Part shown: positions 3,451 to 64,000 of the stretch, in pieces | Position numbering within the stretch: the stretch's first letter is position 1 | How the letters are laid out: each line of letters begins with the position of its first letter | IMG/VR virus record: IMGVR_UViG_3300044971_004534 | Source: a virus | DNA: 64,000 nucleotides | Strand: one strand, 5' to 3' | The notes under the pieces: generated by a model | The model's database searches: none | Told to the model about the DNA's origin: nothing | The model's input: the letters and a program-made list of their open reading frames with translations, nothing else | Position numbers and translations under genes: made by a program

Positions 3451-3666
3451 ATGGACAACATTCCTACACTTGGTAAACAATTAGCAGATAATATAAATTC
3501 ATTAATTGAGAAAAAGATAAATGAGAATTACACTAAGTTATATCATCAGCAAAATGTATTTGAAGGCGGCTTATATGGTGGAGCTAGAAGCTTGACAGAT
3601 GTCTCTACTAGTGAGGAAGAAGCTTATGGTCGCATTGGGATTAAAAGCGGAATTGTAGGAGCGTAA
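3451..3666 (+). CDS. Small hypothetical protein (71 aa), probably a virion or assembly component
   Basis: The ATG at 3451 is preceded by GGAGG (3441-3445), formed by the terminal Gly codons of the upstream gene. The ORF exactly fills the space between two large genes, and its TAA overlaps the next ATG (TAATG at 3664-3668). No recognisable domain. Confidence 0.7.
   Translation: MDNIPTLGKQLADNINSLIEKKINENYTKLYHQQNVFEGGLYGGARSLTDVSTSEEEAYGRIGIKSGIVGA
3657..3661 (+). promoter_or_regulatory. Shine-Dalgarno AGGAG for the 3666 gene
   Basis: The sequence is GTAGGAGCGTAATG, with 4-nt spacing to the ATG. Confidence 0.5.
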
Positions 3667-46887: not shown

Positions 46888-49800
46888 TGGCACAATATAT
46901 TAATACATCACTTATTGCTGACAATGAATTTTGGGACGCATCTACTTGGAGAAGAATGTGTAGAGAGTTGGCTGGACTTCGTGGATTGGCTCCTGCTGTA
47001 CATTTTAGGAACACTGTTAACGACAGTGATTCTTCTCAAAACGTTGATGACGATAGAATTTTTCATACTCATACACACCAAAAAATTTACGTTTGGGGCG
47101 TTGAGATGTGTTCTGGAGGTTATGACACTTTAAAAATATACTGGAGAGCCCCCAGTAATCCGCCAGATGCTCAGTGGACTTTAGATAGTGGGTGGACTCT
47201 TATAAAGGGAGCTGGAGCTAAGACTAATGGAGGAAGCGGTACTGGTGCTGGTCAAACAAATCCGAACAATACCGCCAATATTCAGCCTGGGCCCAGCCCC
47301 TTTGGAAATATAGGAACTTCTGAAGCTACATTGGGTGGCACTGGTACTGGTTTACATTTCCCTCGCAGCAATCCGCTTCCTGACGGTTCTACTAATAACG
47401 TAGAATACTTTTATAATCAGTGGCTTTTAGAGATGAAACATAGTGGTGCGATTTATACTATGGCTGGTCCATCTCCAATCTATGATCAGGGTCAGGCTTA
47501 TACAACTCTTACTTCAAATTTTTTAAGAACTTTTTTACTAATGAAAGAAGGGTATTGGAAATTTGTATTAGATGAAACGGCGTCTCCTTGGTATAATCAA
47601 TCTTTAGGTTTGCCAACTACAAATTGGGATTCTGGATTAAAAACAGATTGGTTTAACTCAAAGGGTCGTTTATCTCCTGTTGATTATGCAACAAATCCTA
47701 CTCTTTATCAATCTTTGCCTGGTCATGTAGATGCTTCTAAAAATAGTCAAGTAGCTTCTACGGGAGTGAGATATAGGTCAAGGTTTACTAGATCTCTTAA
47801 TGTAAGAGCTTTTTTTCCTGAAAAAGATTTAGTTACTGGTTCTTTAATGACAAAAGTTTTTAAGACAATGACTCCTGGCGTAGCTACTAATGATTACCAG
47901 GTAGATGCTCCATATACAAAAGTTGTAGGTTACGGCGCTGAATGGGGTAGTTCTTTGCAGACTGCATCCAGTGCTCAATGGACAAAGTTTGTTAAAACAC
48001 GAAATTCTTCTGGGCAAGATGGAACTTCAGGATTCCCTCACACTACAGAAATTACATCAAATGAAAGATTTAGTAATGTAGAATGGAGGTATACTCCATT
48101 ATTTAAAAAGAGAGTTATTAATCGAAGACACTTGTTCATTGATGGAGTTACCATAAATGGTGGCGACAAGTTTGTAGACGGATATTACAGCGTTCAGGGG
48201 CTATGGGAGGAAGACCCAATTTACGTCAGGCCAGATGCGCCTGCAGCTCCTGGTACTTCTTTTCCATCTGGAGATGGGCAAGTCAAAGGATGGTTTGTTG
48301 ACTTTAGGGGTAGTGTATTTAGAAATTGCACTTTTAAAAATATTTTTATTGGCGGCAGGGACGAATCTTGTTGGTCTGGAGTATCTTTTGTAAACTGCAA
48401 ATTTATTAATTGTGCAGTAAATACAAATGGAGATTCTATTCTTTTTCATGAATGTTCTTTCATTGGTGGTTATAAAAATACCGCCATGTTTACGCCGACT
48501 ACATTTCATTCAAGTGCATTTATTAGTTGTCAGTTCTTAAATAATGATAGAGTGTTTATATTCTCTTCTGCCAAGGGGCCAGTTAGCGATAATCTTTGGT
48601 GGCGTAACATTTTTGATTATCAAGTTAATCAAAATGGTGGCGGCAGTGAAATATTTTGTACAGAATTTCCAAGCTTTATGAGATTCAGTGCTCAAACTTA
48701 TGCGTTTGATGCAACAGGTACTAGCATAACTTCCCATATAGTGCAGCAGCATGAATTCTCAAGAAATTTATTTATTAATAATCGTTTGCATAGTGGTCTT
48801 GGTGGTATAGTTTCATCATATGAGACTTTTAGTAGAGCTAATCTTTTCTATATGAATACCTTTAATGATACCATTAAGATATACGCGCATACTCCTGCTG
48901 GACTTAGCGAAGACAAGTGCCTGTATGAGTCTTGGGCGCATAACTTCATGCATAAGCTTTCTATTTCTCTAGATGGAAAAACTTATCATCATAGATTTAT
49001 ATGCAACGCTGTTTCTGAGCCTCAGTTTAGTAGTTTCAAGAGTATAGATAGTCACTATAGTCCCTATTCTCTTGGGACAGGAGTATGCGTCAATGCAGGT
49101 GGAGTTGAGGGCGACTCAAGCGCTCCATCTGGCCAATGGTATTGCGTTAATACAACTGCTATGGCTAATAAGGCTATAAGTAACGTCTTTTTAAACTGGG
49201 GCAATTACTTTATGGACAACCACTTGGGTCCATGTTCTATATTTAACGGATTTCATCATGTATATGATCCAAATTTTGATATTAATAAAAGTATAGATAA
49301 TTATTGGAGTCAAAATAATTTGTGGAAATACGTAAATGTTGCTCATAGAAATAAATTTAATTTGCCTTTTCCTGGTAAAAAATATGGTTGGCATGATGGT
49401 CTTATTGGTCGCTTAAATCCTGATGGAACCGAATGGTCTCCTCAGCATCACAACTCAAGTGGAGCAAGAAGTTTTTCTCCTTTGCCTTTAGAATGGAAGC
49501 TAGAGCATTACGACAATGGATGGAAAGTTTGGGATACATCTTACGGTGGACCTTCTGGTGGTTTTTATTGTTCACAAGATTCTTCTCATATTGCATCAAG
49601 AAATGAATGCCGTTCTATTTATGTTAAAAATTTAAGCAGTAATGTTTGGGAGAAGAAGAATAGCGGTGTTTTGTACAGTAATGAGGCTGTTTTGTCTTCT
49701 AGACAAGGTTGGGGTCAACAGATATTCAGAAATGATGTTATAACTGATGGTCTAATATTGGCTTTGAATGCGAGTGTCGTTAGCTCTTTCAACTATGGAA

Positions 49801-50543
49801 GTGGTAGCTCTTTTGATATAGGAAATAATACACAATGGAAAAATATGATGAGCAATGGATTCCATGGTTCTATTCAAAATTCTCCAAGATTTGCTGGTAC
49901 AACTTTGACTGCTCCTCCGGCAAATTGCACAAATACCAATAATGACGGCAGCGGAGGTTCTATTAGGTTTAATTGTACAGATACCGATGATTTTGTAAAC
50001 ATTTCTAATATCAATTCTTCTGGAGCTACAGTCTCAAATACTTTTAGTGCAAAAACTGATGGTTTTATCACTATTCAAACCTGGGTTCGTTTAAGAAGTG
50101 TTGCAAATCAAATGTTTTTTGGTAAAGGAACAAACAGTACTTCTGGCAATTGGGACGGCTATTCTGTAGGTACTGGTTCTTCTGGTGGGCTTTTGATAGT
50201 TACAAATGGTGCTTCAGTTTATAAAGAAAATAGTACTTCTGGATCTGGACTCATACTATCTGCAGATGTTTGGTATTTTATTACTGCTGTCATTAAGATT
50301 GGTGGCACAAGTGGAGACGTTAAGGGCTACGTTAATAATGTAAGATATATTAATGGTTCTCACGGCTCAGAAACATCCTATGATGACACTGTTAATCCGC
50401 TCGTGTTGGCTAAAGGCTTTAAAAATAGTACTTCTAATTTTCCATTTACTGGATGGATGGGAGAGTTTTATTTTTACAATCGTGAATTGACTGCTTCCGA
50501 GGTAGAAATAAATTATCAAGCTACTAGAGGAAGATTCTTATAA
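46887..50543 (+). CDS. Paralog 1 of a triplicated beta-helix fibre family (1,218 aa), with a Gly-rich insert and a C-terminal LamG lectin domain
   Basis: Shares three signatures with the next two genes. The N-terminal one is LAGLRGLAPAVHF...IYVWGVEMCSGGYDTLKIYW. The mid motif is EGYWKFVLDET. The Cys-ladder beta-helix rungs read VDFRGSVFRNCTFKNIFIGG...FVNCKFINC...FHECSFIGG...FISCQFLNN. The C-terminal LamG module lies at 49748-50540. Confidence 0.88.
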   Translation: MAQYINTSLIADNEFWDASTWRRMCRELAGLRGLAPAVHFRNTVNDSDSSQNVDDDRIFHTHTHQKIYVWGVEMCSGGYDTLKIYWRAPSNPPDAQWTLDSGWTLIKGAGAKTNGGSGTGAGQTNPNNTANIQPGPSPFGNIGTSEATLGGTGTGLHFPRSNPLPDGSTNNVEYFYNQWLLEMKHSGAIYTMAGPSPIYDQGQAYTTLTSNFLRTFLLMKEGYWKFVLDETASPWYNQSLGLPTTNWDSGLKTDWFNSKGRLSPVDYATNPTLYQSLPGHVDASKNSQVASTGVRYRSRFTRSLNVRAFFPEKDLVTGSLMTKVFKTMTPGVATNDYQVDAPYTKVVGYGAEWGSSLQTASSAQWTKFVKTRNSSGQDGTSGFPHTTEITSNERFSNVEWRYTPLFKKRVINRRHLFIDGVTINGGDKFVDGYYSVQGLWEEDPIYVRPDAPAAPGTSFPSGDGQVKGWFVDFRGSVFRNCTFKNIFIGGRDESCWSGVSFVNCKFINCAVNTNGDSILFHECSFIGGYKNTAMFTPTTFHSSAFISCQFLNNDRVFIFSSAKGPVSDNLWWRNIFDYQVNQNGGGSEIFCTEFPSFMRFSAQTYAFDATGTSITSHIVQQHEFSRNLFINNRLHSGLGGIVSSYETFSRANLFYMNTFNDTIKIYAHTPAGLSEDKCLYESWAHNFMHKLSISLDGKTYHHRFICNAVSEPQFSSFKSIDSHYSPYSLGTGVCVNAGGVEGDSSAPSGQWYCVNTTAMANKAISNVFLNWGNYFMDNHLGPCSIFNGFHHVYDPNFDINKSIDNYWSQNNLWKYVNVAHRNKFNLPFPGKKYGWHDGLIGRLNPDGTEWSPQHHNSSGARSFSPLPLEWKLEHYDNGWKVWDTSYGGPSGGFYCSQDSSHIASRNECRSIYVKNLSSNVWEKKNSGVLYSNEAVLSSRQGWGQQIFRNDVITDGLILALNASVVSSFNYGSGSSFDIGNNTQWKNMMSNGFHGSIQNSPRFAGTTLTAPPANCTNTNNDGSGGSIRFNCTDTDDFVNISNINSSGATVSNTFSAKTDGFITIQTWVRLRSVANQMFFGKGTNSTSGNWDGYSVGTGSSGGLLIVTNGASVYKENSTSGSGLILSADVWYFITAVIKIGGTSGDVKGYVNNVRYINGSHGSETSYDDTVNPLVLAKGFKNSTSNFPFTGWMGEFYFYNRELTASEVEINYQATRGRFL
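49748..50540 (+). other. C-terminal LamG / concanavalin-A-like lectin domain of paralog 1
   Basis: The sequence reads GLILALNAS...FHGSIQNSPRF...FTIQTWVRLRSVANQMFFGKG...WDGYSVGTGSSGGLLIVTNG...ADVWYFITAVIKIGGTSGDVKGYVNNV...FTGWMGEFYFYNRELTASEVEINYQATRGRF. The terminal h.hY.R.LtasEh..NY motif is characteristic of Laminin_G_3 modules. Confidence 0.75.
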
Positions 50544-50555: not shown

Positions 50556-53138
50556 ATGTTTCAAGCTTATGATTCTCAATCTGCATTACGCGAAATGGTC
50601 GGCATAAGAGGCGCTGCACCTTCTATTCGTTTTAAAGAGTCTGTTCCTGGGCTCTCTGTTGAAAAAGAGGTCTTACATGTCCCAGCTAATGAGAGTGTTT
50701 ATGTTTGGGGAGTTGAGCTATTTAGTGGTGGTTTTGATTGTTTAAAAGTAACACATTATCCAGATGGGCAGCCGCCTGTGCTTATAAAAAATGGTGGCAA
50801 TGAAATATCTTTATTGAATAACAGGAAACAAATTAGTTACTTTTCAAACGGTGTAAAAATTGTTGAAACATTACCTTTTGATGATTTTTGGAACGAACCA
50901 TTTTTAGTTAATAAAAACGATGAAAAAATAGTAAAGAGTAATTTTTTTAGGTGTTTTATATTTGAGTCTGAGGGTTATTATAAATTTGAGATTGATGAGA
51001 CTTTTAATCCTAAATATTTAAGTCCTGATTTTTTACCTATCGATTATGCATCTGATCAGATCTATAGCTCTGGCAGTGGCAATAGGCAGGGAAACAGGGC
51101 TGCTACTTGGTCTGTCACAAAGTCAAAAAGCTCGACACCAGAAGATTACGCAAGATCTAACAGTTCATTAAAAAGAGAAATTTATTTAAGAGTTATATCT
51201 AGAGATAAAGACATAGTAAATGGCAGCACTATATCTAGAAATGTTTTCAATCTTTCTCCAGGTTTAGTGAAGTACGAAAATTTGCCTCCATGGACGGGTA
51301 CTAATCGTGATGCAAACGGAAATCCTCTCAGAGTTAATACGTTGGGTCCGTGGTATGTAGCTGGCAATAATGCTTACTACAATGTTGACGCCTATTATAA
51401 TAGCAACACTACCACTTCAGGTGCGCCTACTATAGACTTAAATCACGGCTGGCTGGGAAGGAACGCTGTATTTGCTCCGCAGTACACAATACAGGGCTTG
51501 ATGAATAATCTACTAGAAAATTCTTATAGACCATATTCAGACTATTTTAGGCAAGGCTGCCGGTATTACAATATGAGAAATGGTGTTATTGAAAACGTTA
51601 ATTTTTATGGGTCAGATTTTTCAGTAGTTCATCAATTTTTTATATTACCATATAGCTATTATAACGACTCTTTAAATGTTGCTTCTTCTGATGCAAATGT
51701 ATTTTTAAATACTACTAGATATTTACCATCAGGATCATCTCTGACTTCAGTTAGTATAGCTTCTGGCTCTCCTGCGATATTAACGTCAGCCAATCATGGC
51801 TTGACGGCTGGCACTCCCATTATGTTTAGTGGTGGCTCTTTGCCAGTTGGTATAAGTGCAAATACAATTTATTTTGTCACAAGTTCAAATTTAACGGCTA
51901 CTACTTTTACAATTAGTGCAACTTCTGGTGGTGCTCCAATAAATACTACTGGAGCTACGGCATCATCTTTTTATTACAGAGATTTTGTAAATATAGATTC
52001 AATTGATAATCTTGTAAGCTATTTAAACAATGGAGCAACTTTTCCAATATCGAGTCAAAACGCTTTGTCCACTCCTGATCAATATCAAAATAATGTTTTA
52101 GTAGATATGAGAGGTGCTGTTTTTAAGAATTGTACTTTTGATAAATATCAAATGAATTTAACACATAAATCTATGATGCTAGATGGTGCAGTATTTGAAA
52201 ATTGCACTTTTATTGGTTGTGGATCTGGCTATAACAATAGTGGTGGAATATTATACAAAAATTGTCATTTTGAAGAAATTAGTACGCAGGGTGATTTGAG
52301 TTTAACATGGGAGGCCGGTGGTTCTTGCTGCGTCATGGGATGTACTCAAAAATATACTGAAAGAGGCACTTTATTTTCTTTTCATAAAGGTGGCTTTAAT
52401 GATAGTATTTGGATAAGGCATTCATATCACGGCATAGACAGGTTTCAGATAGCAAATGAGCATTGGGTAATGGAATCTTGTTGTTGTGGAGATTGTGCTA
52501 CTTCAAATCGTTTTGACAATAATATGTTTATAATGAACAGAGGCTCTAAGGGGCCTTGCAGTATAGGTCTCTATAGAGCAAATTGTAAACTAAATTTAAT
52601 CGCATTTAATTCTTTTGAAGTTTATTCTGGAGGATCTAATTACTTTTTAGTCAATGATCCGGGTCGAGTTTTTGACTTAGAATGCAATGTTTTTCTGTAT
52701 AATGATTCAGTTGGGTGCGGTATTAGTATGCAATATTGGTCCCATAATAATAGGTTTATTAATTGTACATTTAGAAAAATTCAAAATTTTGCCAACCCAT
52801 GGGGTGGATATAATTGGGTAAGTCAGGATGAAGTGGATGGAAGAAATTTTTACACTTCTTATGGTTTTCTCAATTTACTTGGTACAGGTTCAGATGCTCC
52901 AACCAGTAATCTTATAATCAATTGTTCAATGATCGACTATCAAGATGATACCTATACTTGGGGCGCAGGTTATAGTTCAGATAATCTTTTTAGAATTAGT
53001 AATATTAATCCAGCCGTAAATGATTCTGAAATACTGTCAGGTAAAAATATTATTTATAATTTAAGAAGAATAATAGAAAACAGTGCAGATAGGACTCATC
53101 CTATAAGCAGTAGTAATCCTAATATAAGTAATTTGTAA
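50556..53138 (+). CDS. Paralog 2 of the triplicated beta-helix fibre family (860 aa), with an inserted small beta-domain
   Basis: AGAAGG (50544-50549) lies 6 nt upstream of the ATG. The N-terminal signature is MVGIRGAAPSIRF...VYVWGVELFSGGFDCLKV, followed by EGYYKFEIDET. The rungs read VDMRGAVFKNCTFDKY...FENCTFIGC...YKNCHFEE. An extra module SANHGLTAGTPIMFSGGSLPVGISANTIYFV...TFTISATSGGAPI lies at ~51750-51960. Confidence 0.88.
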   Translation: MFQAYDSQSALREMVGIRGAAPSIRFKESVPGLSVEKEVLHVPANESVYVWGVELFSGGFDCLKVTHYPDGQPPVLIKNGGNEISLLNNRKQISYFSNGVKIVETLPFDDFWNEPFLVNKNDEKIVKSNFFRCFIFESEGYYKFEIDETFNPKYLSPDFLPIDYASDQIYSSGSGNRQGNRAATWSVTKSKSSTPEDYARSNSSLKREIYLRVISRDKDIVNGSTISRNVFNLSPGLVKYENLPPWTGTNRDANGNPLRVNTLGPWYVAGNNAYYNVDAYYNSNTTTSGAPTIDLNHGWLGRNAVFAPQYTIQGLMNNLLENSYRPYSDYFRQGCRYYNMRNGVIENVNFYGSDFSVVHQFFILPYSYYNDSLNVASSDANVFLNTTRYLPSGSSLTSVSIASGSPAILTSANHGLTAGTPIMFSGGSLPVGISANTIYFVTSSNLTATTFTISATSGGAPINTTGATASSFYYRDFVNIDSIDNLVSYLNNGATFPISSQNALSTPDQYQNNVLVDMRGAVFKNCTFDKYQMNLTHKSMMLDGAVFENCTFIGCGSGYNNSGGILYKNCHFEEISTQGDLSLTWEAGGSCCVMGCTQKYTERGTLFSFHKGGFNDSIWIRHSYHGIDRFQIANEHWVMESCCCGDCATSNRFDNNMFIMNRGSKGPCSIGLYRANCKLNLIAFNSFEVYSGGSNYFLVNDPGRVFDLECNVFLYNDSVGCGISMQYWSHNNRFINCTFRKIQNFANPWGGYNWVSQDEVDGRNFYTSYGFLNLLGTGSDAPTSNLIINCSMIDYQDDTYTWGAGYSSDNLFRISNINPAVNDSEILSGKNIIYNLRRIIENSADRTHPISSSNPNISNL
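51750..51960 (+). other. Inserted small beta-domain (HGL-x-x-G ... LP-x-G-h ... YFV ... TF-x-h-S-x-T-x-GG-x-x-I) present only in paralog 2
   Basis: The sequence is SVSIASGSPAILTSANHGLTAGTPIMFSGGSLPVGISANTIYFVTSSNLTATTFTISATSGGAPINTTG. I have seen this pattern recurrently in phage tail and structural proteins but cannot name the family. Local G+C is higher than background (spot counts 42%, 50%, 32% and 42% for the four lines 51721-51960). Confidence 0.5.
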
Positions 53139-53139
53139 T

Positions 53140-54837
53140 ATGGGATACACAGATCTTAGTTTTTATCTTGGCTTACGTAGATTGGCTGGTATTAGATCAG
53201 CTGCTCCTGCGGTAATTGTTATTGATCAAAATTTAGGACAAGAAGTTTATGTGGTAAGGAAGAATGAAATTATCACATTATGGGGTTGTGAAATGATGCC
53301 TCTGCAATCAGATTGCATTCGTATAAGTTACAAATCCACTGCATCTTCTTCTTGGACTGTTTTAAAAGACTATTTAGCTCAGACATCATTGGGAATATTT
53401 GGAAGTAATGTTTCAACAGATCCTAATTTATTTTTATCTGGTTCTCCATCTCTGGCGGATAATTATGAGTTGAATGATCCTGTCTATAAGGACGGTTTTA
53501 AAATTAGTGGAGTGACTTATTGTAGAGAACATGATAGTCCTTTTAAAACAGTTGGGTATTCTGGATCATGGATATATAGGCAAGAACAGCAGATTCATGC
53601 CAAAGTTTCATACAACAATTTTGGACGAGGTTTTAGATTTTTTCAAGACGGATATTATAAGTTTGATTATGATGAATCAAAATCAGCATTGTACAAAAAA
53701 ACAACAGGTTCAGCTAATCCAGTAGATCCTGATGCTGCTGATTATAATACATTCAAATACAATGGTTCTGTGCCGTGGACCCCAGTAGATAGAAGCCTGT
53801 ATGAGCATGGCGATGTTTTATTAAGATCCATTATAATTAGATGTGCAACTAATTTTGATGCAGTTGCAAATGCAAGTTATAGCGATAGCGACTTGTCTTC
53901 TTTAAATCCAACAGTAAGTTCTTTGCCTATCAACACTAGTCAAAACATATGCAGAAAAATAGGGTTGCAAGTAAAGTCAAAATCTTATGATGTTTCTGGA
54001 GGTTCAAAGCCAACGTGTTCTGCTAATGGTTTTTTGATAGACATTTCATCTGCTGGAGTTGCATCGACTACTATTAATCAATTTGATACAAATATTTCGT
54101 TTACTAGTGGTACTATAGTTAAAAATATTAGAAATAGGACTTTTGACACTGTCAATTTTGTGGGTCCTGGCGATTTTGTTCAGCATATATCTCCAATTCC
54201 TGGTTCAGACTATTGTGCTCAGCCAGTTGATATGCGTAATTCTAGATTTTATAATTGCACATTTAAAAATGTTATTTTTGGATCTCCTGGAAAATCTCAA
54301 TTGATATTAGATGGTTCGATATTTTTTCAATGTAACTTTGAAAGTTGTAAGCTTTATTTAAATCCTAAAAACATATTATTTAAGAACTGTACTGTTAATA
54401 ATAGTTCAGTGTCTGAAGGATTTTTAATTATGAATGGATCTTTTGGTAATATGTTTACAGATCTTATTGTAAAAGACACTAACAGGCCATTTGTTTTTGT
54501 TAATAATGAAAATAGCAATAATAGTAATTTTATTATAATGAGTAATTTTAGTCAAGGTGGAGATGTGGAGCTAGGTAGCTGTCCATTTGTAAATGTAGTT
54601 CCTGGTTCTAATTCTGCTCATTCTTCTTCATTTTCTGGCAATATTATTATGCGTAATTATATTGATGATGGATCTGGAGATCCTGTCAGAATAGAAAAAA
54701 CTTCAGCTCATGGTAATTTTTTTGGTGGAAATTACATGATTTCCCATGGAAATCTATCTTTAGCAGAAGACTTGAAACAGAAGCAAAAAAATAAGGATTT
54801 TATTAGATATCCCAGTATTAAGCCCTATACTTCGTAA
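53140..54837 (+). CDS. Paralog 3 of the triplicated beta-helix fibre family (565 aa), minimal version
   Basis: The ATG lies 1 nt after the upstream stop. The N-terminal signature is LAGIRSAAPAVIV...ITLWGCEMMPLQSDCIRISY, followed by DGYYKFDYDES. The rungs read VDMRNSRFYNCTFKNVIFGS...FFQCNFESC...FKNCTVNN. Confidence 0.88.
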   Translation: MGYTDLSFYLGLRRLAGIRSAAPAVIVIDQNLGQEVYVVRKNEIITLWGCEMMPLQSDCIRISYKSTASSSWTVLKDYLAQTSLGIFGSNVSTDPNLFLSGSPSLADNYELNDPVYKDGFKISGVTYCREHDSPFKTVGYSGSWIYRQEQQIHAKVSYNNFGRGFRFFQDGYYKFDYDESKSALYKKTTGSANPVDPDAADYNTFKYNGSVPWTPVDRSLYEHGDVLLRSIIIRCATNFDAVANASYSDSDLSSLNPTVSSLPINTSQNICRKIGLQVKSKSYDVSGGSKPTCSANGFLIDISSAGVASTTINQFDTNISFTSGTIVKNIRNRTFDTVNFVGPGDFVQHISPIPGSDYCAQPVDMRNSRFYNCTFKNVIFGSPGKSQLILDGSIFFQCNFESCKLYLNPKNILFKNCTVNNSSVSEGFLIMNGSFGNMFTDLIVKDTNRPFVFVNNENSNNSNFIIMSNFSQGGDVELGSCPFVNVVPGSNSAHSSSFSGNIIMRNYIDDGSGDPVRIEKTSAHGNFFGGNYMISHGNLSLAEDLKQKQKNKDFIRYPSIKPYTS

Positions 54838-54894
54838 AATATAATTTTTATTTATACGAAATAATAAGTATAGTCAATATTATTGGTAATTTAA
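54838..54894 (+). promoter_or_regulatory. The only substantial intergenic spacer; candidate internal promoter and translation-initiation region for the last giant gene
   Basis: This is a 57-nt AT-rich gap (aatataatttttatttatacgaaataataagtatagtcaatattattggtaatttaa). TATAAT lies at 54840-54845. I see no convincing -35 element and no exact T4-late TATAAATA. There is no stem-loop terminator. Confidence 0.3.
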
Positions 54895-57800
54895 ATGACC
54901 TGGCCAGTTATTTCTTCAAGCAATCCTTTTGCTCAAACCATAAATCTCAGTTCTGATTCTGATTTACCACCTATAGCTAGATGGTCTAGCGTGCCCATGC
55001 AATGGGTTCACGATGGAGAATCGATAAGAGCATCTGTGGTAGCGTATCACTCTGCTGGTATACAAAGAGTTGATTTTATTTGCGACGGCGGAGAGTACGA
55101 GTCTGGTGGTCATATTATTAGCGTTATTAATCCTGTAGCGGACGCAGTTTCAAAGCAGGATGAGTATGCCTGTAGTATTGATATAGATAGTACTTGGCCT
55201 GAAGGAATTCATACAATCAGGGCTATTGTTTATTCTAATGCTGGCACTCAAAGAGTATTGCAGGGAACTTGGTTGCCAAAGTTTTCGTCCTCTTCAGACG
55301 AATATTCTTATGCATCGAATGGAGAGGTTGATTTTACTTTTATAGTTAATCGTGGATCTTATGACGGCATTACAGTTTATGTAGATTCTGTAAATGGCAA
55401 TGACGCTAATTCGGGTACTTTTGGCTCACCATTAAAAAATCTATGGAGCGCAATAGTTAAGATTCATGCAAGCCATACAGAAGGCTCTATTAGAGAAGAC
55501 GTTATTGTCTGTAAGGCTGGAGAGTATAGAATAAGCCCACTTGTCCAAAGCGATTATCCCGGCGGAGTGATTTCAGATGCACCATTGGGGTCTGGAAGAA
55601 TTGGTTGGTTGAAAATAAAGTCGATGGATGGTGTGAATAAAAAAGATGTGGTTATCACCAACCGTTCCATTAATTTTGGCAGTGTTGGATCTCCTTCAAG
55701 TTATACAGTACTTTCTAATTCTTTAGAATCTCGTTTTACTAATTTTGAAAATTTAACTTTAGAAAACTTTTATGATAGCAGTACAAATGTATCTGGAGAA
55801 AAGAATTTTATTATTAAAACTGGCGCGAATGTAGATAGCAGAGGAGTGTGGTTGAATGGCTGCAGTATTAGGGGAAAAGTAGGGGTATCTGTTGATACGT
55901 TAGTGTCTAGTTTAAATAGTCAGTCAAATATTTCTTTTAAAGCTTATCCTGGCATATCAGAGAATATAGTTGGGTTTGCTACTAATTGTTCAGTCAATGG
56001 CTTGTATAGAGGTTTTAAAGATTTTGCTTTAGTGAAGCAGTGTGGAATAGGCAGTGTCGTAGAGTACGCAGCAAAAAACTGTGCTGCTTTGATGTCGTGC
56101 AACATATCCAGTGTCGGGAATGTGGGAGCTGTATCTGGATCTGCAGTGATCAGCTTTACTGAAGATTCAGGAATAAAGAAAAATATTATTATATCTAAAA
56201 ATAATATTAATAAATCTGCTATTGCTCATTTTAGTTTTGATGCTAATGGAGCAACATTCAGTCCTAATGATTTTTACGAGAGTATAGCAATAGTCTCAAA
56301 TTATTTTACTAGATTTTCTGGTGGTCCAGGTAAGTCTTATATTTTTAATGGGATCAAGCAAGCATTTATTGTTCACAATAGTATGCTTGACAGTCTATCC
56401 TTTCATGATACACCAAATGGAGCGTGGACTAACCCAGCCAATGTGAGCAGCATATATTGCAGATACAATTTATTAAATGGAATTATAGTTGATTCAACAT
56501 CTGGCTCAACAGCTTCATTAGGTGCTGGTTTATCAAAGTTAAATACTTCTTTAACAAATTCAAATTCTGATATATCTGCAAATATATTTTTATTACCATC
56601 GGTTTCTTCTAACCCGCTTTTCTTATCTCTAATAGTAGCTAATCAGAACACGCAGGTAAATACAAGTTCACACAAAGTTGTCAAAAATTATTCTGAAGGA
56701 AATCTTGCTCTTTTGTGTGTTTCTCTTAATGGGGTTTCTAATCCAGCAAAAGGTTTAGAAAGTTCATCTATTTTGAATACTGACATTTTGGGTAATTCAT
56801 ATGAGAATTCTAAGGGAGATTGTGGTGCGAGACAGGATTGCACTGAAGAGGTTTCTCCAGATATTATAGAGACAACTGAAATTAAAACAGTTCCTATATC
56901 TGGATTTCCAATACTTGGAGCTAATCAAGTAGACTTCTTTCAGTCTTCTACTTTTGCTTTACAGTATCAGTTTAGCGCTTTTGATATGGTTCTTTGGTAT
57001 GATCAAAACGTAAGAAATTTTCCTGCTTCTGCTACAGAGACGGGATCACCTTACTACCCAGGTGGCTCTTATCAAGAGTGTCAGATTTGCACTTTGGGCC
57101 CAGGATTGTGCACAAGTACAGTTGATGGTGGCGCAAATTGGTTTAAGAGATGGAGTCTGCCTTCGAGTTTGACATTTGAGCTTTCTACTCTTCCTGCTTG
57201 TGACAGTGGGAATACTTCTAAGATAGCTGGTACTCGTGCTGCGTTTAGAGAGTATTTCGATGTTGATGGTATGGTGCGCGGAATGTCAAGGTATAACCCA
57301 GACTGGGCATTAGTATTTCTGCATGGTGGGTCAGAGCCATTGTGGTGGGATACTCAGATACCTGGAATGAGCCAATGGGCTTTGCTTAAAGATGATGGAG
57401 AAGAAAGCACTTCTATGGGTCTTGGAATGGACGTAGTGCAGGCCTACAAAGATGCATCAAATAAGTATAAGCAAAAATTGATGGCTTACTTTTTTCCATT
57501 TGCTTGGATTGAGTTAGATTCTTCTGTTTATCCTTATGCATTAGATATTTTTGGAAATCATGTTACTGAGGGCAGACATGGACCAACTATAAGCTATAGA
57601 TCTTCTTTTAATGATGCATTTGTTGACCTGCTATGCCAGATACATGTTGAGATGGCTCGCAAGTGTTTTGATATAGAAACAGGCTATGGATTCGCTGGGT
57701 GTATGTGGGATGCAGCTCCGATGTTGTATACACTTGACTTTAGTCCTGACGCAATTGCTGCATCTGGAATAGATGCTACTAAAGATTTTCCTTGGCCACT

Positions 57801-60800
57801 TAATAATCCGGCAGATGGTTCCAACACTGCTTTATTGACAGCATTTGTAAGTGAAGTTACCGCTAATGCGAATCCAGGTTCTCTCTTATTAAGAGATCCA
57901 AATCCCGCTAGAGGCTGGACACAGGATATTAAGGATAAGTTGCAGGCATATGTATATGCATTAAATAATCTTCAACCAGACATCATGCGCCGCATAAGAG
58001 AAGCTGTAGATGAAGCTGGATATTCTGATTTCGTGATCCTTCATGCTGTTGCAAACTCTCAGCCATCTTTTGAGTGGCCAGGCAATGCTGAAGATGTTGC
58101 ACTATATTCTTCTGGTGTCAAAACAGAAATAGGTGCAGAAGGCTATCTGAGAAGAAGGCAGGCTTCAAACGTTACTAGCAAAACTGGATCTAAAGCAGCT
58201 CCAGATTTATGGCTTGCCATGCATACAGATTTTTTAATGTCTCAGTCTAGAACTGGAAAAAGAGCTTATGGATGGCAAATTGGTCAATGGATTATACCAA
58301 ATTGGATAAGTGGTAGTGAATGTGACGCTACATTTAAATCTTGCTTAACAACTTTTGACGGTAATTATTCCAATAAAGTAGAGTTTAAAAACAATCTTCT
58401 TCCAAGAGATATAGCAGTACGTGGTTGGTTGGAAAACCAATCTTTATTAGCTCTGGCTTCTCACGTTACCCCAGAGTTTATGTATGGGTTTTATGATTGG
58501 TATAAATATGATCAAGTAGAAGACTTGTCAGGATTTGAGAATGCTGCAGACGCCTTTGCAATACAGCATCTTCCTTATATGAGAAGAATTTCTTCCATAC
58601 TTGGATCTGTTAGTGATGCAAACGTCAAGTTGCACAATAGATCAAATGTTGCATGGTGTGTTATATTGCATCGTCCAGAGCTGGGCTGGAAGACAAGTTT
58701 GTATATTAATACTGGTGTTAATGAATCATTCTCTGGCCCTGGTTTTGCTTACTACTGGCCAATATTTGGAGCTGTACAGACATGTGTTGAGCATGGCATT
58801 GCTCACGTTATTGCTCAGGATGATGCTTTTACTGCAAGTAATTTTGCAAATTCTGGAGTAGTTATAGTTCCTTTTGACAAAAATCTTTTGTCTGCTTCTG
58901 TGAGAAATGAGCTTGAATTATTTGATGGACTTGTCATATATGTGCAAGACGCCATAGCAAACGGTGAGCTTGATGATAATTTCCATAATACCCAGTCAGT
59001 TGGAAATAAAACAAGAGCTCAAGTTTCTAGAGATCAGTTGTGGAATTTGATGCAAAGAACTAATAAAAATTTAGTATTGCAAACAGAGTTTTCTTATCCT
59101 CAAAATTTGCCTGAATCTCCAATTCCGATGGTTGGTTATGAAATAGGAACTGATGTTTATGAAAATCAATCTCTACTTGTGACCTTAGTTGCAGATGCTG
59201 CTTGGCACGATGGTAGAAAATATGGATTCTTTGGTCTTACCGTCAATAACTATCCAGTAAATGGAGTTTGTGGTAGACAAAATTTGTTACTTGCATCTCC
59301 TAACGATCCAGAAAATGATCTTGTTAATTCTTTAAATTTAAGGAAAATATTAGATGTATGTAGTTGCACTTATACTGACACATTTACTACAATTAATACT
59401 ATAGCTGGTAGAGATTGCTATTATGTTAATCATTCTGCTGCTGGAGTAATACCGGTAGAGGTATTGCCAGCAAGAGGCAAGCTTAACTATTATGCTGGAT
59501 ATCCTCCAGTTTGGAATAGTAATAGAAGCGCAAGAATAACATTCAATGCTTCTCAAAAGCCTTATAGACTTAGACAGTTATTGTTAAATAAAGATGATGG
59601 AGTTTTTGGTCCAGTTGACATGTTTGTTAACAATGACTTTGTTGATGTTGTTCCGTTTGAAATTGGATCTTTTGTACAGGTTCAATTATCAGATGCTGAC
59701 ATTATCCCGCATGTTGGAATGTGTGTATCTGAAGATTTACTAAAAGTCGCCAGTGTTGATGATCTAATTTCTTTACTAAGTTTTTTAAGAGATCAGCCAG
59801 CATCATTCAACGTTATAAAAGTTAGATTGTCATGCGGTTCTTCAATGGTCGAAGGCGACGTAGTTGCTAATACTTTATTCACAGAAATCATTTCACATGC
59901 ACAGTCTAATCAAAATGCATATTCTTGGCTTGTAAATAATGTTGGGGAAATAGGAAGTCCTACTATTCACACTTTATTTGGCCTACTTAGATCTACGTCA
60001 CAAAATCCATGTGGAGATGGATCTTTCTCTGTTGGTGGAGTTTTAATACAAAATGAAGGTATCTGCAAAATTGCATCAGCGTTAACTTCACTATCTACTA
60101 TGTATAATCGTTTAACTAGCGATAGTCAATGTTACTGTGAATCTTCAGATACCTATAAGCTATACTCATCTAAGGTAAATTTAGACAGATCTTTAAGTCC
60201 TTCCGATGGCTCTAGCTGGGCTGCGACGGTAGAAGATGAAATCTCTGCCATATCAGACGCTAGCGATGGTTTAATGATGTACATTAGGCCTGTAAGTGAT
60301 ATTTCAAGTGATTACTACAATATTGACGTGAATGGTTTGCCAATTATAGATGGAATTGTTAAATATGTTTCTGATGTTAATGACGCAATACTTTCACATA
60401 CTGCTAACGTACAAGATGCTTCAGATTATTATGCAGGAGTCGTATTAGACTTTGAGCATCTTTTTAATATAAATAGCCCTCTTGCTACCTTGCACGCAGA
60501 CGCATGTTCTTACCCATTCTTTATAAATTCTCAGGGCTCAGATTCTTTTGACAATGTCAGGAGATCAATTGCTTATGTAAATGGCAGATTAATATCTGTG
60601 CTAAGTGCTATTAAATTTATAAATCCAAAACTACAGGTTTCTATAAGGGGTCTCGGAAGAATAGATGATGCTTTTGGCTTTGAGGAAAGTAAAGACTCTA
60701 GTGCAGTACATACGGCAGCAAATTGCACTCCAAAAGCACGTGAAGAGTTGTATAAAAGAGTATCAGAATTTTATGGTCCACTTTTAGAAGCTTGTGATTT

Positions 60801-63800
60801 CGTATACCTTTGGAATGCAAATGAATCTGAAGATGCAGATCTTTCTGGTATTATTCCTAGTATAGCCAAGGCTAATTTAAGACTTTCCTCTTTATCTAAG
60901 CACTTTGAATATAGACAAGCTAATCAGCCATTAATATTTGTTGAAATAAATGGAACATATTTGTCTTCTAATGGCAATTCGCCTAGTGATTACTGTGAAG
61001 TTTCAAGTGCAGAAATTCTCGCAGAGTCACTTGATCCGTTTATTCGTAATAGTATAGATGGATTTGTGTATTATGCTGGTCAAGAAAATATAGAAAAGTC
61101 TATTTTTGAAAATTGCCCAACTTCTATTTCTAATTCAGCAATTGCCGCAGCAGTATCTTCTTGCTGGGATGTTGCTATATCTAATTGCTCTAGTGAAAGC
61201 GGCGTAATATCTGCATTTGAATCTTCAATATTAAATCATATTGAGTTAATATCATCACATATTGGTGGAAGCACTACAGAATCTTATATTCCATTTATTA
61301 TTATGATGGGAGAGTCTAATGCTGGAGGTTTGGCAAAGAATTCAGAAGCTTTAGCTTCTGAATTAGGAACAAGAGATGAAGTTAAAATTTTAAATAATTA
61401 TACTTTAAATTTTGAAACTTTAAATATTAGTGCTACAGGTAATAATATTTTAGATCACCGTAACCCAAACGGTATACCAGATGTTACAGATTCTATATGG
61501 AATTCTAATGGTGGGCCTCCTCATGGCTGGGAGCTTGGTTTAGCTAATGCTGTAAGAGATGGAAAATTTGCAACAGATTTTGTCTATCTTCTAAAAACAG
61601 GTCATGGTGGTTCTAAGATTGGAGACAATGCTATTGATGGTGACTGGGACACCTCTGATACTTATTGGAATTTATTTGTCAATAGATTTAATGTCGCTAA
61701 ATCTGCTATTATTGCTGATGGATATACTCCACAGGTATATTTATGGTATGAAATAGGAATTAATGATTGCATATCTAATGTAAATCCATCTCAGTGGAAA
61801 ACAAAATTAGTACAAAAGTTTATAAATGTAAGATCTGCTGTAGGTGCAAATATACCAATATTCATAGTATTATTGCCAGATGTTGATATGTCCGGTGGCT
61901 CTATTGATAACATATCTGATTTCAATAATGCTATTTTAGAAATTTGTGCAGAAAATAACTTAATATATTGGGTTAAATCAGAAGATGCTCCATTAAAGTC
62001 TGGTGATATTTATCACTGGAATTATTATGGCATGAAAAATCTTGCTGATAAAATGTCGTACTTGACTGCAGATGTTATTGGTCAAGGCATAAATTATATT
62101 GCAAATATCGCAGTGGCTCCTAATCAGCCAGACTACAACAATTTTTCCCCAGTTATTGGATTTATACCTTACAGTAATTCATCAGATCCAGCTTTAGAGT
62201 TTGTTTATCCGTCATTCGAGGTTAGGGGTAGACTTTCTGGTAATGCCATAAATGACGAGCCAGGATCTGGTCCTTATCCAAGTAGTGATGGGTCTCCTTC
62301 GCAAGCTATATCTTTCTTTAATTCTAAGGGTATACCAGCAGCAAGAAGATCAGTATTCTATTTTAATATTGGATCATCAACATTTGATGGGGTATTTTCT
62401 GATCCTATATACAATAGAACTTATGAACAACTATATAATTCATCAGACAGTTGTATAGATGCAAATGGAGATATAGTAAGACAAGACACGTTAGATCCAA
62501 GAGAGGCTCAAAATCCTACTTATAGAGGAAGTCTAGCTTTTGTTTCTCCGTGGACATTAGGAGCAAATACAAGACTTGAACAATTTACTCGTCAATGGGT
62601 TGGAGAATATAAAAATTTAAATGGAAAGATTTATGGCTTTATATCTGATAATGAATCCCTCAACCCAACTGGCTTTTGGGCTGTCCCATCTTTAAGGTAT
62701 GACAACAATAACACTTCTCGCATTCCGCACTTCCAAAAAATAATTAATGATCCAAGATCCTTGCTTACTAATGAAAGTGCTGGATACGCTTTTGAAATTG
62801 GTAAAAACCTGAAAGACCAATTAAGGCTGAATGATTTTTACAACATAAACGATTTTGACTCCGTTGATTTTAGAACTATTGATGACCCGCAGTTCAGGGG
62901 AGGCTACCTGCACTGGGATTATGTGATGTATAGGCATGCCATATGGTATGCTCAAAAGCACTGGTACGATGCCATTAGTGATTATTTTCCAAATCATAAT
63001 TCAACACATGTTTGGACATTCTATATTCCCAAAGAAGATCATTTTAATGATATGAATGGTCATATTACTTACAGAGATATGCTTTGTGGTAATACTGCAA
63101 ATCCTTTATTGTTTGGAGAATGTGGTGGAATTGGAATCAACAGTGAAATAGATCCAAACAATAAAACACGAACAAGATTCTTATCTCAATACAATCCTGG
63201 TGGAACTCCTTTTGGCTCTAGGGCTTGGAATAGCTTGTTGTTGCAGCAACAGGAAATAAAGGCAATACGTAGACATCCAGAAAATCAAAAATTTATACCA
63301 TGGATAGGAAGTAGAAATCTTATTTTGAATAACGCTTTTGGTGGTGGATCAGATGTGAATCATGATTCTCTGTGGGCTGAGGGAGTATATCACTTAGCTT
63401 TACACAATCCAGAAGCTATATACATGTTCTACCCCAGAAATCCAGATGGAGCTGGGGACACTGCTTGGTATATTGAGAATGGTCTAGTTTCTTATCAATT
63501 ATTAAATTCTATATTGAAAGAAGTGAATGAAAGAACTGGAAATAAAATTGTTTCTCTTGTTGAAAGTTCTATACAAAGAATAAACCTTGATAGTAAAGTT
63601 TTAATAACTGGTTGCAAAACTATTAAAAATAAACATCTATGGAGAATAACGGCAGATGTTTTACATGTTAATTCTTTGAATATAGATGGTTCTGTTTTTG
63701 CAGTACAGTCTAGCAGTCCTGCCATATGGTATGAAACTGGAACAAATGTTGCAGCAATCAATATTCTTTCTTATGATCCAGTTACTAAGACTTTAAATCT

Positions 63801-64000
63801 TGTGTCTTCATCTGCAGAAGCTCCTTTGTGTAAGTCTTGTATGTCTGCATTCATTTCTCCAGCTATTACTGCTTCAGAGTTTAATGTTGATAAAAATTCA
63901 TTCCCTCAAAACATTTTCTCTATGATAGAAATTAGTGATCGTGTTTTGTCAAGAGATACTTATGATCCTAATGGCGCGTGTGCAGCCAATGCTTCCGCAA
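54895..64000 (+). CDS. Giant multi-domain protein (>=3,035 aa, 3' end beyond the window) with an Ig-like N-terminus, a pectate-lyase-type beta-helix and an SGNH/SASA-type esterase domain
   Basis: Not in the supplied ORF track. I translated frame 1 from the ATG at 54895 (MTWPVISSSNPFAQ...). I then checked it codon by codon over 54895-55500, 58561-58740 and 61261-64000, and no stop occurs. The track also lists no frame-1 ORF fragments anywhere in 54.9-64 kb, consistent with one frame open to the window end (last codons ...NGACAANASA). Domain evidence is given in separate features. Confidence 0.9.
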   Translation, partial: MTWPVISSSNPFAQTINLSSDSDLPPIARWSSVPMQWVHDGESIRASVVAYHSAGIQRVDFICDGGEYESGGHIISVINPVADAVSKQDEYACSIDIDSTWPEGIHTIRAIVYSNAGTQRVLQGTWLPKFSSSSDEYSYASNGEVDFTFIVNRGSYDGITVYVDSVNGNDANSGTFGSPLKNLWSAIVKIHASHTEGSIREDVIVCKAGEYRISPLVQSDYPGGVISDAPLGSGRIGWLKIKSMDGVNKKDVVITNRSINFGSVGSPSSYTVLSNSLESRFTNFENLTLENFYDSSTNVSGEKNFIIKTGANVDSRGVWLNGCSIRGKVGVSVDTLVSSLNSQSNISFKAYPGISENIVGFATNCSVNGLYRGFKDFALVKQCGIGSVVEYAAKNCAALMSCNISSVGNVGAVSGSAVISFTEDSGIKKNIIISKNNINKSAIAHFSFDANGATFSPNDFYESIAIVSNYFTRFSGGPGKSYIFNGIKQAFIVHNSMLDSLSFHDTPNGAWTNPANVSSIYCRYNLLNGIIVDSTSGSTASLGAGLSKLNTSLTNSNSDISANIFLLPSVSSNPLFLSLIVANQNTQVNTSSHKVVKNYSEGNLALLCVSLNGVSNPAKGLESSSILNTDILGNSYENSKGDCGARQDCTEEVSPDIIETTEIKTVPISGFPILGANQVDFFQSSTFALQYQFSAFDMVLWYDQNVRNFPASATETGSPYYPGGSYQECQICTLGPGLCTSTVDGGANWFKRWSLPSSLTFELSTLPACDSGNTSKIAGTRAAFREYFDVDGMVRGMSRYNPDWALVFLHGGSEPLWWDTQIPGMSQWALLKDDGEESTSMGLGMDVVQAYKDASNKYKQKLMAYFFPFAWIELDSSVYPYALDIFGNHVTEGRHGPTISYRSSFNDAFVDLLCQIHVEMARKCFDIETGYGFAGCMWDAAPMLYTLDFSPDAIAASGIDATKDFPWPLNNPADGSNTALLTAFVSEVTANANPGSLLLRDPNPARGWTQDIKDKLQAYVYALNNLQPDIMRRIREAVDEAGYSDFVILHAVANSQPSFEWPGNAEDVALYSSGVKTEIGAEGYLRRRQASNVTSKTGSKAAPDLWLAMHTDFLMSQSRTGKRAYGWQIGQWIIPNWISGSECDATFKSCLTTFDGNYSNKVEFKNNLLPRDIAVRGWLENQSLLALASHVTPEFMYGFYDWYKYDQVEDLSGFENAADAFAIQHLPYMRRISSILGSVSDANVKLHNRSNVAWCVILHRPELGWKTSLYINTGVNESFSGPGFAYYWPIFGAVQTCVEHGIAHVIAQDDAFTASNFANSGVVIVPFDKNLLSASVRNELELFDGLVIYVQDAIANGELDDNFHNTQSVGNKTRAQVSRDQLWNLMQRTNKNLVLQTEFSYPQNLPESPIPMVGYEIGTDVYENQSLLVTLVADAAWHDGRKYGFFGLTVNNYPVNGVCGRQNLLLASPNDPENDLVNSLNLRKILDVCSCTYTDTFTTINTIAGRDCYYVNHSAAGVIPVEVLPARGKLNYYAGYPPVWNSNRSARITFNASQKPYRLRQLLLNKDDGVFGPVDMFVNNDFVDVVPFEIGSFVQVQLSDADIIPHVGMCVSEDLLKVASVDDLISLLSFLRDQPASFNVIKVRLSCGSSMVEGDVVANTLFTEIISHAQSNQNAYSWLVNNVGEIGSPTIHTLFGLLRSTSQNPCGDGSFSVGGVLIQNEGICKIASALTSLSTMYNRLTSDSQCYCESSDTYKLYSSKVNLDRSLSPSDGSSWAATVEDEISAISDASDGLMMYIRPVSDISSDYYNIDVNGLPIIDGIVKYVSDVNDAILSHTANVQDASDYYAGVVLDFEHLFNINSPLATLHADACSYPFFINSQGSDSFDNVRRSIAYVNGRLISVLSAIKFINPKLQVSIRGLGRIDDAFGFEESKDSSAVHTAANCTPKAREELYKRVSEFYGPLLEACDFVYLWNANESEDADLSGIIPSIAKANLRLSSLSKHFEYRQANQPLIFVEINGTYLSSNGNSPSDYCEVSSAEILAESLDPFIRNSIDGFVYYAGQENIEKSIFENCPTSISNSAIAAAVSSCWDVAISNCSSESGVISAFESSILNHIELISSHIGGSTTESYIPFIIMMGESNAGGLAKNSEALASELGTRDEVKILNNYTLNFETLNISATGNNILDHRNPNGIPDVTDSIWNSNGGPPHGWELGLANAVRDGKFATDFVYLLKTGHGGSKIGDNAIDGDWDTSDTYWNLFVNRFNVAKSAIIADGYTPQVYLWYEIGINDCISNVNPSQWKTKLVQKFINVRSAVGANIPIFIVLLPDVDMSGGSIDNISDFNNAILEICAENNLIYWVKSEDAPLKSGDIYHWNYYGMKNLADKMSYLTADVIGQGINYIANIAVAPNQPDYNNFSPVIGFIPYSNSSDPALEFVYPSFEVRGRLSGNAINDEPGSGPYPSSDGSPSQAISFFNSKGIPAARRSVFYFNIGSSTFDGVFSDPIYNRTYEQLYNSSDSCIDANGDIVRQDTLDPREAQNPTYRGSLAFVSPWTLGANTRLEQFTRQWVGEYKNLNGKIYGFISDNESLNPTGFWAVPSLRYDNNNTSRIPHFQKIINDPRSLLTNESAGYAFEIGKNLKDQLRLNDFYNINDFDSVDFRTIDDPQFRGGYLHWDYVMYRHAIWYAQKHWYDAISDYFPNHNSTHVWTFYIPKEDHFNDMNGHITYRDMLCGNTANPLLFGECGGIGINSEIDPNNKTRTRFLSQYNPGGTPFGSRAWNSLLLQQQEIKAIRRHPENQKFIPWIGSRNLILNNAFGGGSDVNHDSLWAEGVYHLALHNPEAIYMFYPRNPDGAGDTAWYIENGLVSYQLLNSILKEVNERTGNKIVSLVESSIQRINLDSKVLITGCKTIKNKHLWRITADVLHVNSLNIDGSVFAVQSSSPAIWYETGTNVAAINILSYDPVTKTLNLVSSSAEAPLCKSCMSAFISPAITASEFNVDKNSFPQNIFSMIEISDRVLSRDTYDPNGACAANASA
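55372..55450 (+). other. N-terminal cap signature of a right-handed parallel beta-helix (pectate-lyase fold / DUF1565-like)
   Basis: The segment ITVYVDSVNGNDANSGTFGSPLKNLWSAIVKI matches the common hYVd..G.D.N.GT...P.kth..A motif that precedes pectin-lyase-fold helices in polysaccharide depolymerases and tailspikes. Downstream to ~56700 the sequence is rich in short N/G/S-containing repeats consistent with helix rungs. Confidence 0.55.
61291..62040 (+). other. SGNH-hydrolase (SASA / carbohydrate O-acetylesterase-like) domain with all four catalytic blocks
   Basis: Block I is PFIIMMGESNAGG (GxSN, compare GQSNM of SASA) at 61291. Block II is LLKTGHGGSKIG at ~61591. Block III is VYLWYEIGINDC (GxND) at ~61735. 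Block V is SGDIYHWNYYG (DxxH) at ~61999. Their order and spacing (about 95, 45 and 90 aa) are as in SGNH/SASA esterases. Confidence 0.7.

Follow-up and report, generated by a model that had tools for sequence, protein, structure and literature searches.

Phage tailspikes that carry deacetylases of the SGNH/SASA type are known, examples being the esterase tailspike of coliphage G7C and the acetyl esterase tailspikes that act on the Vi antigen. Jumbo phages can have branched multi-tailspike systems, in which separate proteins of ~0.5-1.5 thousand amino acids (kaa) dock on one another, and swappable anchors in front of enzyme-bearing heads are a hallmark of tailspike and fibre evolution. Huge phages are, to our knowledge, known almost only from metagenomes, and we know of no account of how they recognise their hosts. 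Here we describe a giant open reading frame (ORF) which begins at position 54895 of a 64,000-nucleotide (nt) stretch of viral DNA, IMG/VR record IMGVR_UViG_3300044971_004534 (the window, meaning the whole stretch at its full length). Its product is probably a glycan-modifying fibre which serves host recognition on the virion surface of a phage whose size is at least 401 kb, and which derives from fused adjacent fibre genes. Very long phage genes have been described before, such as the 14,256 bp gene of phage WO, which was termed the second largest phage gene in 2016 (10.1101/049049).

With the SGNH tailspikes the giant protein shares an SGNH carbohydrate esterase in which the Ser/His/Asp triad and the oxyanion residues are intact, a modular build, exchangeable anchors and, by prediction, a place on the virion. 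Receptor recognition by stripping O-acetyl groups from a surface polysaccharide is likely in both. It differs from them in being ~10 times longer, with the esterase in mid-chain and flanked by two modules, A and C, rather than in a ~1-kb protein, and no sequence similarity to isolated phages was found (50,697 records). As in the multi-fibre systems of jumbo phages, a large share of the genome is given to many host-recognition proteins with different enzymatic heads, which lie in a co-directional block, but here a single frame links the units, and the block extends over at least 85 kb, its genes coding for proteins of 1-8 kaa. The phage WO gene is likewise a very long multi-domain gene made by joining domains, whereas the gene described here is 23,397 bp by gene calls and is directed at glycans, in place of the eukaryote-directed toxin and ankyrin domains of phage WO. 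Fibres and spikes with SGNH deacetylases are already known. What is unusual at this locus is the scale, the joining of fibre units in one frame, the block of at least 85 kb and the presence of two families without an assigned fold that occur in viral sequences only.

The open frame is a real, protein-coding gene. Computational translation of frame 1 from the ATG at 54895 to base 64000 gave 3,035 sense codons with no in-frame stop, in agreement with a preliminary description made from the letters of the window. The remaining five frames contain 138-346 stops across the same span, and the chance of a random open frame of this size at the local base composition is ~1e-98. An in-frame TAA at 54892 lies directly before the ATG, and therefore the ORF starts no earlier than 54895. 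Codon usage, which the preliminary description had proposed to compare with that of the neighbouring genes, correlates with that of the 16 pooled upstream genes at r=0.96 (0.19-0.65 in the wrong frames), and the guanine-cytosine (GC) content by codon position, 0.44/0.42/0.23, is similar to that of the neighbours. The mechanical ORF list for 54895-64000 holds only four short ORFs, of 68-88 amino acids (aa), because it omits ORFs which run off the source. The preliminary description had explained the missing entry in the same way, by the lack of a stop in the window, and it was also right that a real intergenic spacer precedes the ORF, since the 57 nt there are the largest non-coding gap in the window. 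ORF tracks that drop stop-less frames may thus hide the largest genes.

The size first given for the gene, at least 3,035 codons, was too low. By public gene calls, the ORF in the window is the 5' 39% of a gene of ~23.4 kb (23,397 bp, 7,798 aa). The window corresponds to bases 64,001-128,000 of the NCBI contig JBFDSL010005901.1 (179,655 bp), on which the gene from the ATG at 54895 is called at 7,798 aa. It is called at the same length on the JGI contig Ga0334988_0000001 (401,021 bp), and at 7,788 aa on a 240-kb contig of IMG 3300059473. In three Logan contigs the frame is open up to the contig end (~4,320 aa), and the protein encoded directly upstream, of 565 aa, is residue-identical on 15 public contigs. 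Translation into an extending public contig (L001), as the preliminary description had suggested, found the frame open for 279 more codons past 64000. The directly readable sequence of this gene is therefore 3,314 codons (3,035 in the window and 279 beyond it), and the figure of 7,798 aa comes from the gene-call table of independent assemblies rather than from our own translation. The full-length protein was not among the matches of either protein search, and scans of viral and metagenome contigs with the last 399 known residues gave no match. IMG 3300059473 is the 20-year Lake Mendota co-assembly (PMC11374980), which indicates that the element lives in fresh water. The features of the gene and its surroundings are given in Table 1.

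Table 1. Positions in the window of the giant ORF, its parts and the features directly upstream (aa numbers count from the start of the giant protein).
Feature	Position	Strand	Remarks
565-aa gene	53140..54837	+	paralogue of 46887-50543 and 50556-53138; probable partner/anchor
AT-rich 57-nt spacer	54838..54894	+	longest intergenic gap in the window; carries TTTATACGAAATA
Giant ORF, first 3,035 codons	54895..64000	+	called at 7,798 aa on public contigs
N region, aa 1-667	54895..56895	+	~150 residues labelled Ig-like in the preliminary description, then candidate beta-helix region
Module A, aa 668-2091 (~1,420 aa)	56896..61167	+	conserved unnamed family
SASA-type SGNH carbohydrate esterase (predicted), aa 2125-2395	61267..62079	+	homology and catalytic blocks
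Module C, aa 2425-2972	62167..63810	+	conserved unnamed family; helix-rich, small beta-sandwich at the end
Next unit, aa 2979 onward	63829..64000	+	separate gene in relative L010

Relatives of the protein were collected by an exhaustive HMMER search with aa 1836-3035, which found 540, and pairwise comparisons then split the 3,314 residues into five parts. Word-index homology searches had returned only 1, 3 and 0 matches, against the 540 found by HMMER. The ORF itself gave nothing significant against Pfam, PHROGs and NCBIfam, and BLAST found no internal repeats within the first 3,314 aa.

To judge by its sequence, the esterase is a SASA/SGNH O-acetyl esterase with the look of an active enzyme, and both the call and the coordinates in the preliminary description held up. 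HMMER found ~400 homologues of the domain. It matches stand-alone ~260-aa proteins at E ~1e-39, and these pass the Pfam SASA family (PF03629), P0014, P0017, P0018 and P0025 scoring 40-59 bits against a cut-off of 24.8 (E 1e-12 to 7e-16). The direct Pfam match of the ORF is a weak one to Lipase_GDSL_2 (E=0.018, 16 bits against a cut-off of 32.9), so that membership of the SASA family is transitive, by way of homologues above threshold. All SGNH blocks are intact and align with those of the SASA-positive homologues, namely GESNAGG (Ser2141), HGGS from 2237, GINDC (Asn2290) and DIYHW (Asp2371, His2374). Among small relatives, P0166 (L011 463-3423) is nearest to the esterase and module C, and its last block reads DIYNW, with Asn instead of the catalytic His. 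The esterase of P0166 may therefore be inactive and serve for binding only.

The N region is common to direct orthologues only (47% identity in P0001 and 71% in L013). The preliminary description had placed an Ig-like domain at its start, for which Pfam gave no Ig-like or Big family at E up to 1, and PDB sequences gave none for aa 1-150. For the beta-helix it named next there is an N-cap motif, ITVYVDSVNGNDANSGTFGSPLKNLWSAI, at aa 158-186 with a weak PDB profile match to the beta-helix enzyme 6kqs, a lacto-N-biosidase (E=0.27), though no Pfam beta-helix family was matched. At the level of this motif, the region from aa 158 may be a right-handed beta-helix. A match of the whole ORF to Sonic hedgehog in the PDB sequence search (E=0.14) was rejected as being at chance level.

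The stretches at 56.7-61.2 and 62.1-64 kb had been described as unassigned. They do remain unnamed, as modules A and C matched no Pfam, PHROG or NCBIfam family, but they are not featureless, since they hold module A, module C and the start of a further unit. Parts of P0001, P0019 and P0044 share 43-47% identity with module A. The core of the module (~aa 755-1570) recurs as copies of 22-24% identity further along orthologous proteins, with paralogous copies at aa 3775-4561 and 4866-5593 of the L013 giant protein and in the gene after P0001 in L010. Assignment of module A to glycoside hydrolase family 5 (GH5) was considered from a 70-residue profile match to 8bn7 (E=0.014) and rejected, because the His of the GH5 'DWH' is a Tyr here (DWYKYD) and no Asn-Glu motif was found; the match is a lead to the fold only. 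Module C forms the extreme C-terminus in 11 of 17 lineages (P0003, P0004, P0005, P0007, P0008, P0009, P0013, P0024, P0044, P0089 and P0166), and is read through in P0002, P0006, P0020, P0126, L013 and the ORF described here. AlphaFold2 models were unusable both for module A, at a predicted local distance difference test score (pLDDT) of 32.9, and for the esterase with module C (pLDDT 39.5), the alignments having 4-5 sequences.

A place on the virion is suggested by the proteins in which these modules occur elsewhere. P0013 (783 aa) is a fusion in which the T4 gp14 neck protein domain occupies aa 3-159 and module C aa 260-783. The gp14 part matches PDB 9mkb (E 1.4e-33) and shares 40.6% identity with T4 gp14, and the C-terminal 520 aa of P0013 are homologous to module C of the giant protein, with 26% identity over ~545 aa (E 5e-47). 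The giant ORF differs from P0013 in having no gp14 domain, and the fusion of gp14 to module C was found in no isolated phage of the 50,697-record collection. P0166 (986 aa), with 42% identity to this ORF, consists of a 150-aa anchor, then the esterase, then module C. Its contig is of a T4-like cyanophage type, with phrog_36119 (E 1.6e-84), speD and a gp31/GroES-like gene, and P0166 is adjoined by a gene rich in fn3 and tail-fibre-J-like domains. A virion location also agrees with the lack of signal peptides and transmembrane segments in the 17 window proteins, and with weak 'central tail fiber J' matches of neighbouring genes. From such sequence comparisons we infer both the display of the giant protein on the virion in this phage and its substrate.

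The giant gene also appears, on comparison with its relatives, to be the outcome of in-frame fusion of neighbouring fibre genes. In L010, a more distant relative, the orthologue P0001 ends after 3,285 aa, at the end of module C, and the next gene begins 1 nt later. Residues 2979-3314 of the giant protein are 34% identical to aa 66-399 of that next gene, so the boundary which separates two genes in L010 is in frame in this genome and in L013. This last relative, IMGVR_UViG_3300042326_002445 (223,646 bp), had come to light when IMG/VR was scanned with an alignment of the esterase and module C, and its orthologue (L013) is 72% identical across residues 3-3314 of the ORF. There the locus forms two genes (L013, L014), of 5,596 and 2,587 aa. 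When the 380 extra N-terminal residues of the first are taken off, (5,596 - 380) + 2,587 gives 7,803, which is close to the 7,798 of our gene and suggests that it also absorbs the relative's next gene, of 2,587 aa, beyond the readable sequence. For the junction past aa 3,314 we infer fusion from this arithmetic. The 380 extra residues (L013 2564-3703), which are absent here, resemble the N-termini of P0035 and P0042, two proteins that end in SASA esterase domains, at 44-48% identity, and so represent a further instance of module fusion. Across the relatives the modules sit behind at least four N-terminal units, namely the gp14 domain, the 'MKHPNQSFIDNF' anchor, the 565-type unit and a 364-aa unit.

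The gene order on IMGVR_UViG_3300042326_002445 is a 568-aa gene, the 5,596-aa giant ORF, a 63-nt spacer, the 2,587-aa gene, a 497-aa gene, a 3,965-aa gene, three glycosyltransferases and a replication module. The giant genes which follow the orthologue lie at L014 8003-15766 (2,587 aa) and L015 7253-19150 (3,965 aa). In the product of the 2,587-aa gene there is a Pect-lyase_RHGA_epim beta-helix (E 1e-11), an RCC1 propeller (E 1.5e-52) and a dockerin segment. The three glycosyltransferase genes (GT2, GT4, GT2) stand directly before the replication module, and the fibre proteins may themselves be glycosylated.

That the giant gene belongs to a phage genome is supported through this orthologous locus, which has PHROG replication genes and DNA polymerase III (Pol III) alpha. 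Its replication module includes a phrog_284 exonuclease (E 2e-44), a phrog_16 helicase (E 9e-93) and a phrog_19 DnaB-like helicase (E 2e-56). Pol III alpha is split in two ORFs which match PDB 2hpi (E 2e-85 and 1e-64); these overlap, at L021 11120-12472 and 12465-14417, and encode the PHP/N-terminal part and then the polymerase core. RecA-like and primase-like (DnaG-like) genes were recognised by eye. The nearest isolates for the phrog_16 helicase are Bacillus phages, including phage G, at no more than 37% identity. Pattern scans of GTDB (185,579 species genomes) found no relative of module A or of the esterase with module C, and a second metagenome scan with the module alignments found nothing. 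On this sequence evidence the source is best described as a deeply divergent, uncultivated huge phage from fresh water, whose contig measures at least 401 kb and whose replisome is of bacterial type. Two described groups were considered and rejected as its kin. The gut 'Jug' phages (PMC12363816) are similar in size, at 360-402 kb, but have a GC content of 27-30% and ~500 genes of ordinary size, and live in the gut rather than in lake water. The 'Moraphages' reach only 307 kb (PMC12619734), and no link to them was found.

If the giant protein is what we propose, it would be a very long modular fibre or decoration on the virion, with carbohydrate-binding and carbohydrate-modifying modules. The chain would run from the beta-helix-like region through the repeated module A and the SASA/SGNH O-acetyl esterase to module C. 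By analogy with the orthologue, a pectate-lyase-type beta-helix, an RCC1 propeller and dockerin-like calcium-binding segments would follow further downstream. Such a protein would work like an enzyme-carrying tailspike or tail fibre, binding a surface polysaccharide of the host while the esterase removes O-acetyl groups from this glycan. Deacetylation could let the phage pass through the glycan layer, or commit to it, and the other modules, possibly glycosidase- or lectin-like, could bind other structures or cut them. Several specificities would stay on one chain through the fusion of neighbouring fibre genes, and the 565-aa upstream protein would act as the adaptor which joins the fibre to the particle.

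Several results weigh against this proposal. The ORF has no match in PHROGs, and tblastn of the ORF and a neighbouring protein found nothing in the 50,697 phage records; with megablast and tblastn the ORF, a 1,221-aa neighbour and P0166 were all unmatched there. No capsid, portal, sheath or baseplate gene was seen beside the array, here or in the relative, and with no hallmark structural gene there the head or neck is a possible place as well as the tail. Most of the protein consists of modules A and C, to which no fold is assigned, and both AlphaFold2 models are poor. Beyond aa 3,314, the length of 7,798 aa and the fusion junction rest on the gene-call table and the orthologue, and the NCBI record which contains the window belongs to an assembly of more than 5,900 contigs. 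The protein might be phage-encoded without being an external fibre, for instance a packaged or injected 'polyvalent' internal protein, or an enzyme complex released at lysis to degrade polysaccharide of the host envelope or capsule. A giant multi-domain protein with no recognised match to a tail-fibre family and no hallmark tail gene adjacent in the stretches read would suit such a role, as would the glycosyltransferases within and beside the array. We nevertheless regard this as unlikely. The domains are extracellular and directed at glycans (the SASA esterase and beta-helix motif, with RCC1, dockerin, fn3 and LamG in neighbours and orthologue), and are unlike the set of polyvalent proteins, which is directed at nucleic acids or against defence. 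Module C is joined in P0013 to gp14, an external neck protein, and the esterase and module C bear exchangeable N-terminal anchors in the fashion of tailspikes.

The extreme length could also be an artefact, in which an assembly chimera or a stop that is read through joins two or three genes, or the fused gene could be a decaying pseudogene. There are stops at two module junctions in relatives, and direct reading of this genome is limited to 3,314 codons. Yet the same length is called in independent NCBI, JGI and Lake Mendota assemblies, and the Logan contigs are open to their ends (~4,320 aa). The junction split in L010 (aa 2972/2979) is in frame both here and in L013, while codon usage and the 72% identity of the orthologue over the whole readable length argue for purifying selection, which makes an artefact very unlikely. 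No more credible is a cellular origin, with the gene encoding a giant adhesin or surface protein of a small-genome bacterium or prophage-free symbiont which was mis-sorted as viral. Giant-gene arrays do occur in some bacteria, the contig is at least 401 kb and the window is without phage hallmark genes. On the other side, none of the 17 proteins in the window has a signal peptide or membrane anchor, there is no GTDB relative and no tRNA or rRNA lies in the window. Moreover, IMG/VR lists the orthologous contig, which bears PHROG replication genes, and relatives of the modules occur in T4-like contexts. The least probable of the explanations is that the DNA comes from a eukaryotic giant virus of the Nucleocytoviricota, with the protein forming, for example, surface fibrils. 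The sources include the Lake Mendota co-assembly, which contains many giant viruses and has been mined for them, and the NCBI assembly of more than 5,900 contigs is possibly a eukaryotic bin. Low GC content and the presence of glycosyltransferases would also fit. Against this, more than 100 kb of co-directional genes overlap by 1-4 nt, the orthologous contig has DnaB, DnaG-like, RecA-like and Pol III alpha genes and not a family B polymerase or D5 helicase, and the modules are linked to T4-like phages.

A bolder form of the fibre proposal would see in the 7,798-aa product a 'super-fibre' or polyprotein of one chain, in which three or more ancestral fibre genes are merged and which is maybe the longest phage protein described. 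Its block would fill about a fifth of a 400-kb genome, or more, and modules A and C would be restricted to viruses. We put this forward tentatively and consider it doubtful as a whole. If true, the host-recognition apparatus would be far more elaborate than in any studied phage, and post-translational cleavage of the chain at the former gene boundaries would be possible. Independently of this, the locus would be an instance of a huge phage devoting tens of kilobases to giant modular surface proteins. Gene boundaries in the block are fluid, as the number of genes which the same modules form varies from one to three among relatives of 43-72% identity. The locus also supplies a testable SASA-type esterase and two large virus-restricted domain families for structural work, and the fusion of gp14 to module C gives a handle on the position of that module on the particle.

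The giant gene lies in an unusual neighbourhood. The window is a run of 17 co-directional genes, for proteins of 213 to 3,288 aa, most of which overlap by 1-4 nt. The same co-directional pattern is seen in 6 kb further upstream (L006 1-6335), and with the giant gene the block comes to at least 85 kb. Among its other large members are those at 8417-18283 (3,288 aa, with RCC1 repeats), 25987-34410 (2,807 aa), 34410-39956 (1,848 aa) and 19792-24918 (1,708 aa, dockerin-like), and a GT4 glycosyltransferase gene (7264-8415) is embedded among them. Across the 17 window proteins Pfam gave only this GT4 glycosyltransferase, RCC1 repeats, a dockerin-like segment and weak fn3 and LamG matches, and PHROGs gave weak 'central tail fiber J' matches in two neighbouring genes only. 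NCBIfam matches to HalA and TafC on neighbours were rejected as far below their cut-offs. Ser and Asn are abundant in all 17 proteins, and signal peptides and transmembrane (hydrophobic) segments were found in none of them. There are no tRNAs, rRNAs or Rfam families in the 64-kb window.

The 565-aa gene directly upstream has an orthologue at the IMG/VR relative L013, of 568 aa and 67% identical. No PDB match was found for it. P0005, P0019 and P0020 also begin with the ~550-aa unit it encodes, followed in the same chain by modules A and/or C. Such a fusion elsewhere is a Rosetta-stone link, which suggests that the 565-aa and giant proteins work together, and the smaller one is likely, by its sequence relations, to be an adaptor tying the giant protein to the particle. 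The paralogues 46887-50543, 50556-53138 and 53140-54837 have in common an N-terminal region of 'LAGIRSAAP' type, together with a stretch that weakly resembles pentapeptide repeats.

Between this gene and the giant ORF, the spacer carries the motif TTTATACGAAATA at 54851-54863. Its core, TACGAAATA, has a single occurrence on the + strand of the window, and is also found in both spacers which flank the relative's giant genes (L013 2488-2496 and 19384-19392). The sample of spacers is small, and in a control 7 of 100 shuffles reached two one-mismatch matches. Scans for sigma-70-type promoters and terminators around the ATG gave nothing usefully above background, and the TTTATACGAAATA motif may be a promoter or regulatory site for the giant genes. 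At the other end of the window, the seeming gap of 216 nt between the first two long ORFs (3451-3666) corresponds to a 71-aa gene on public contigs (L006 9786-10001), and is probably coding.

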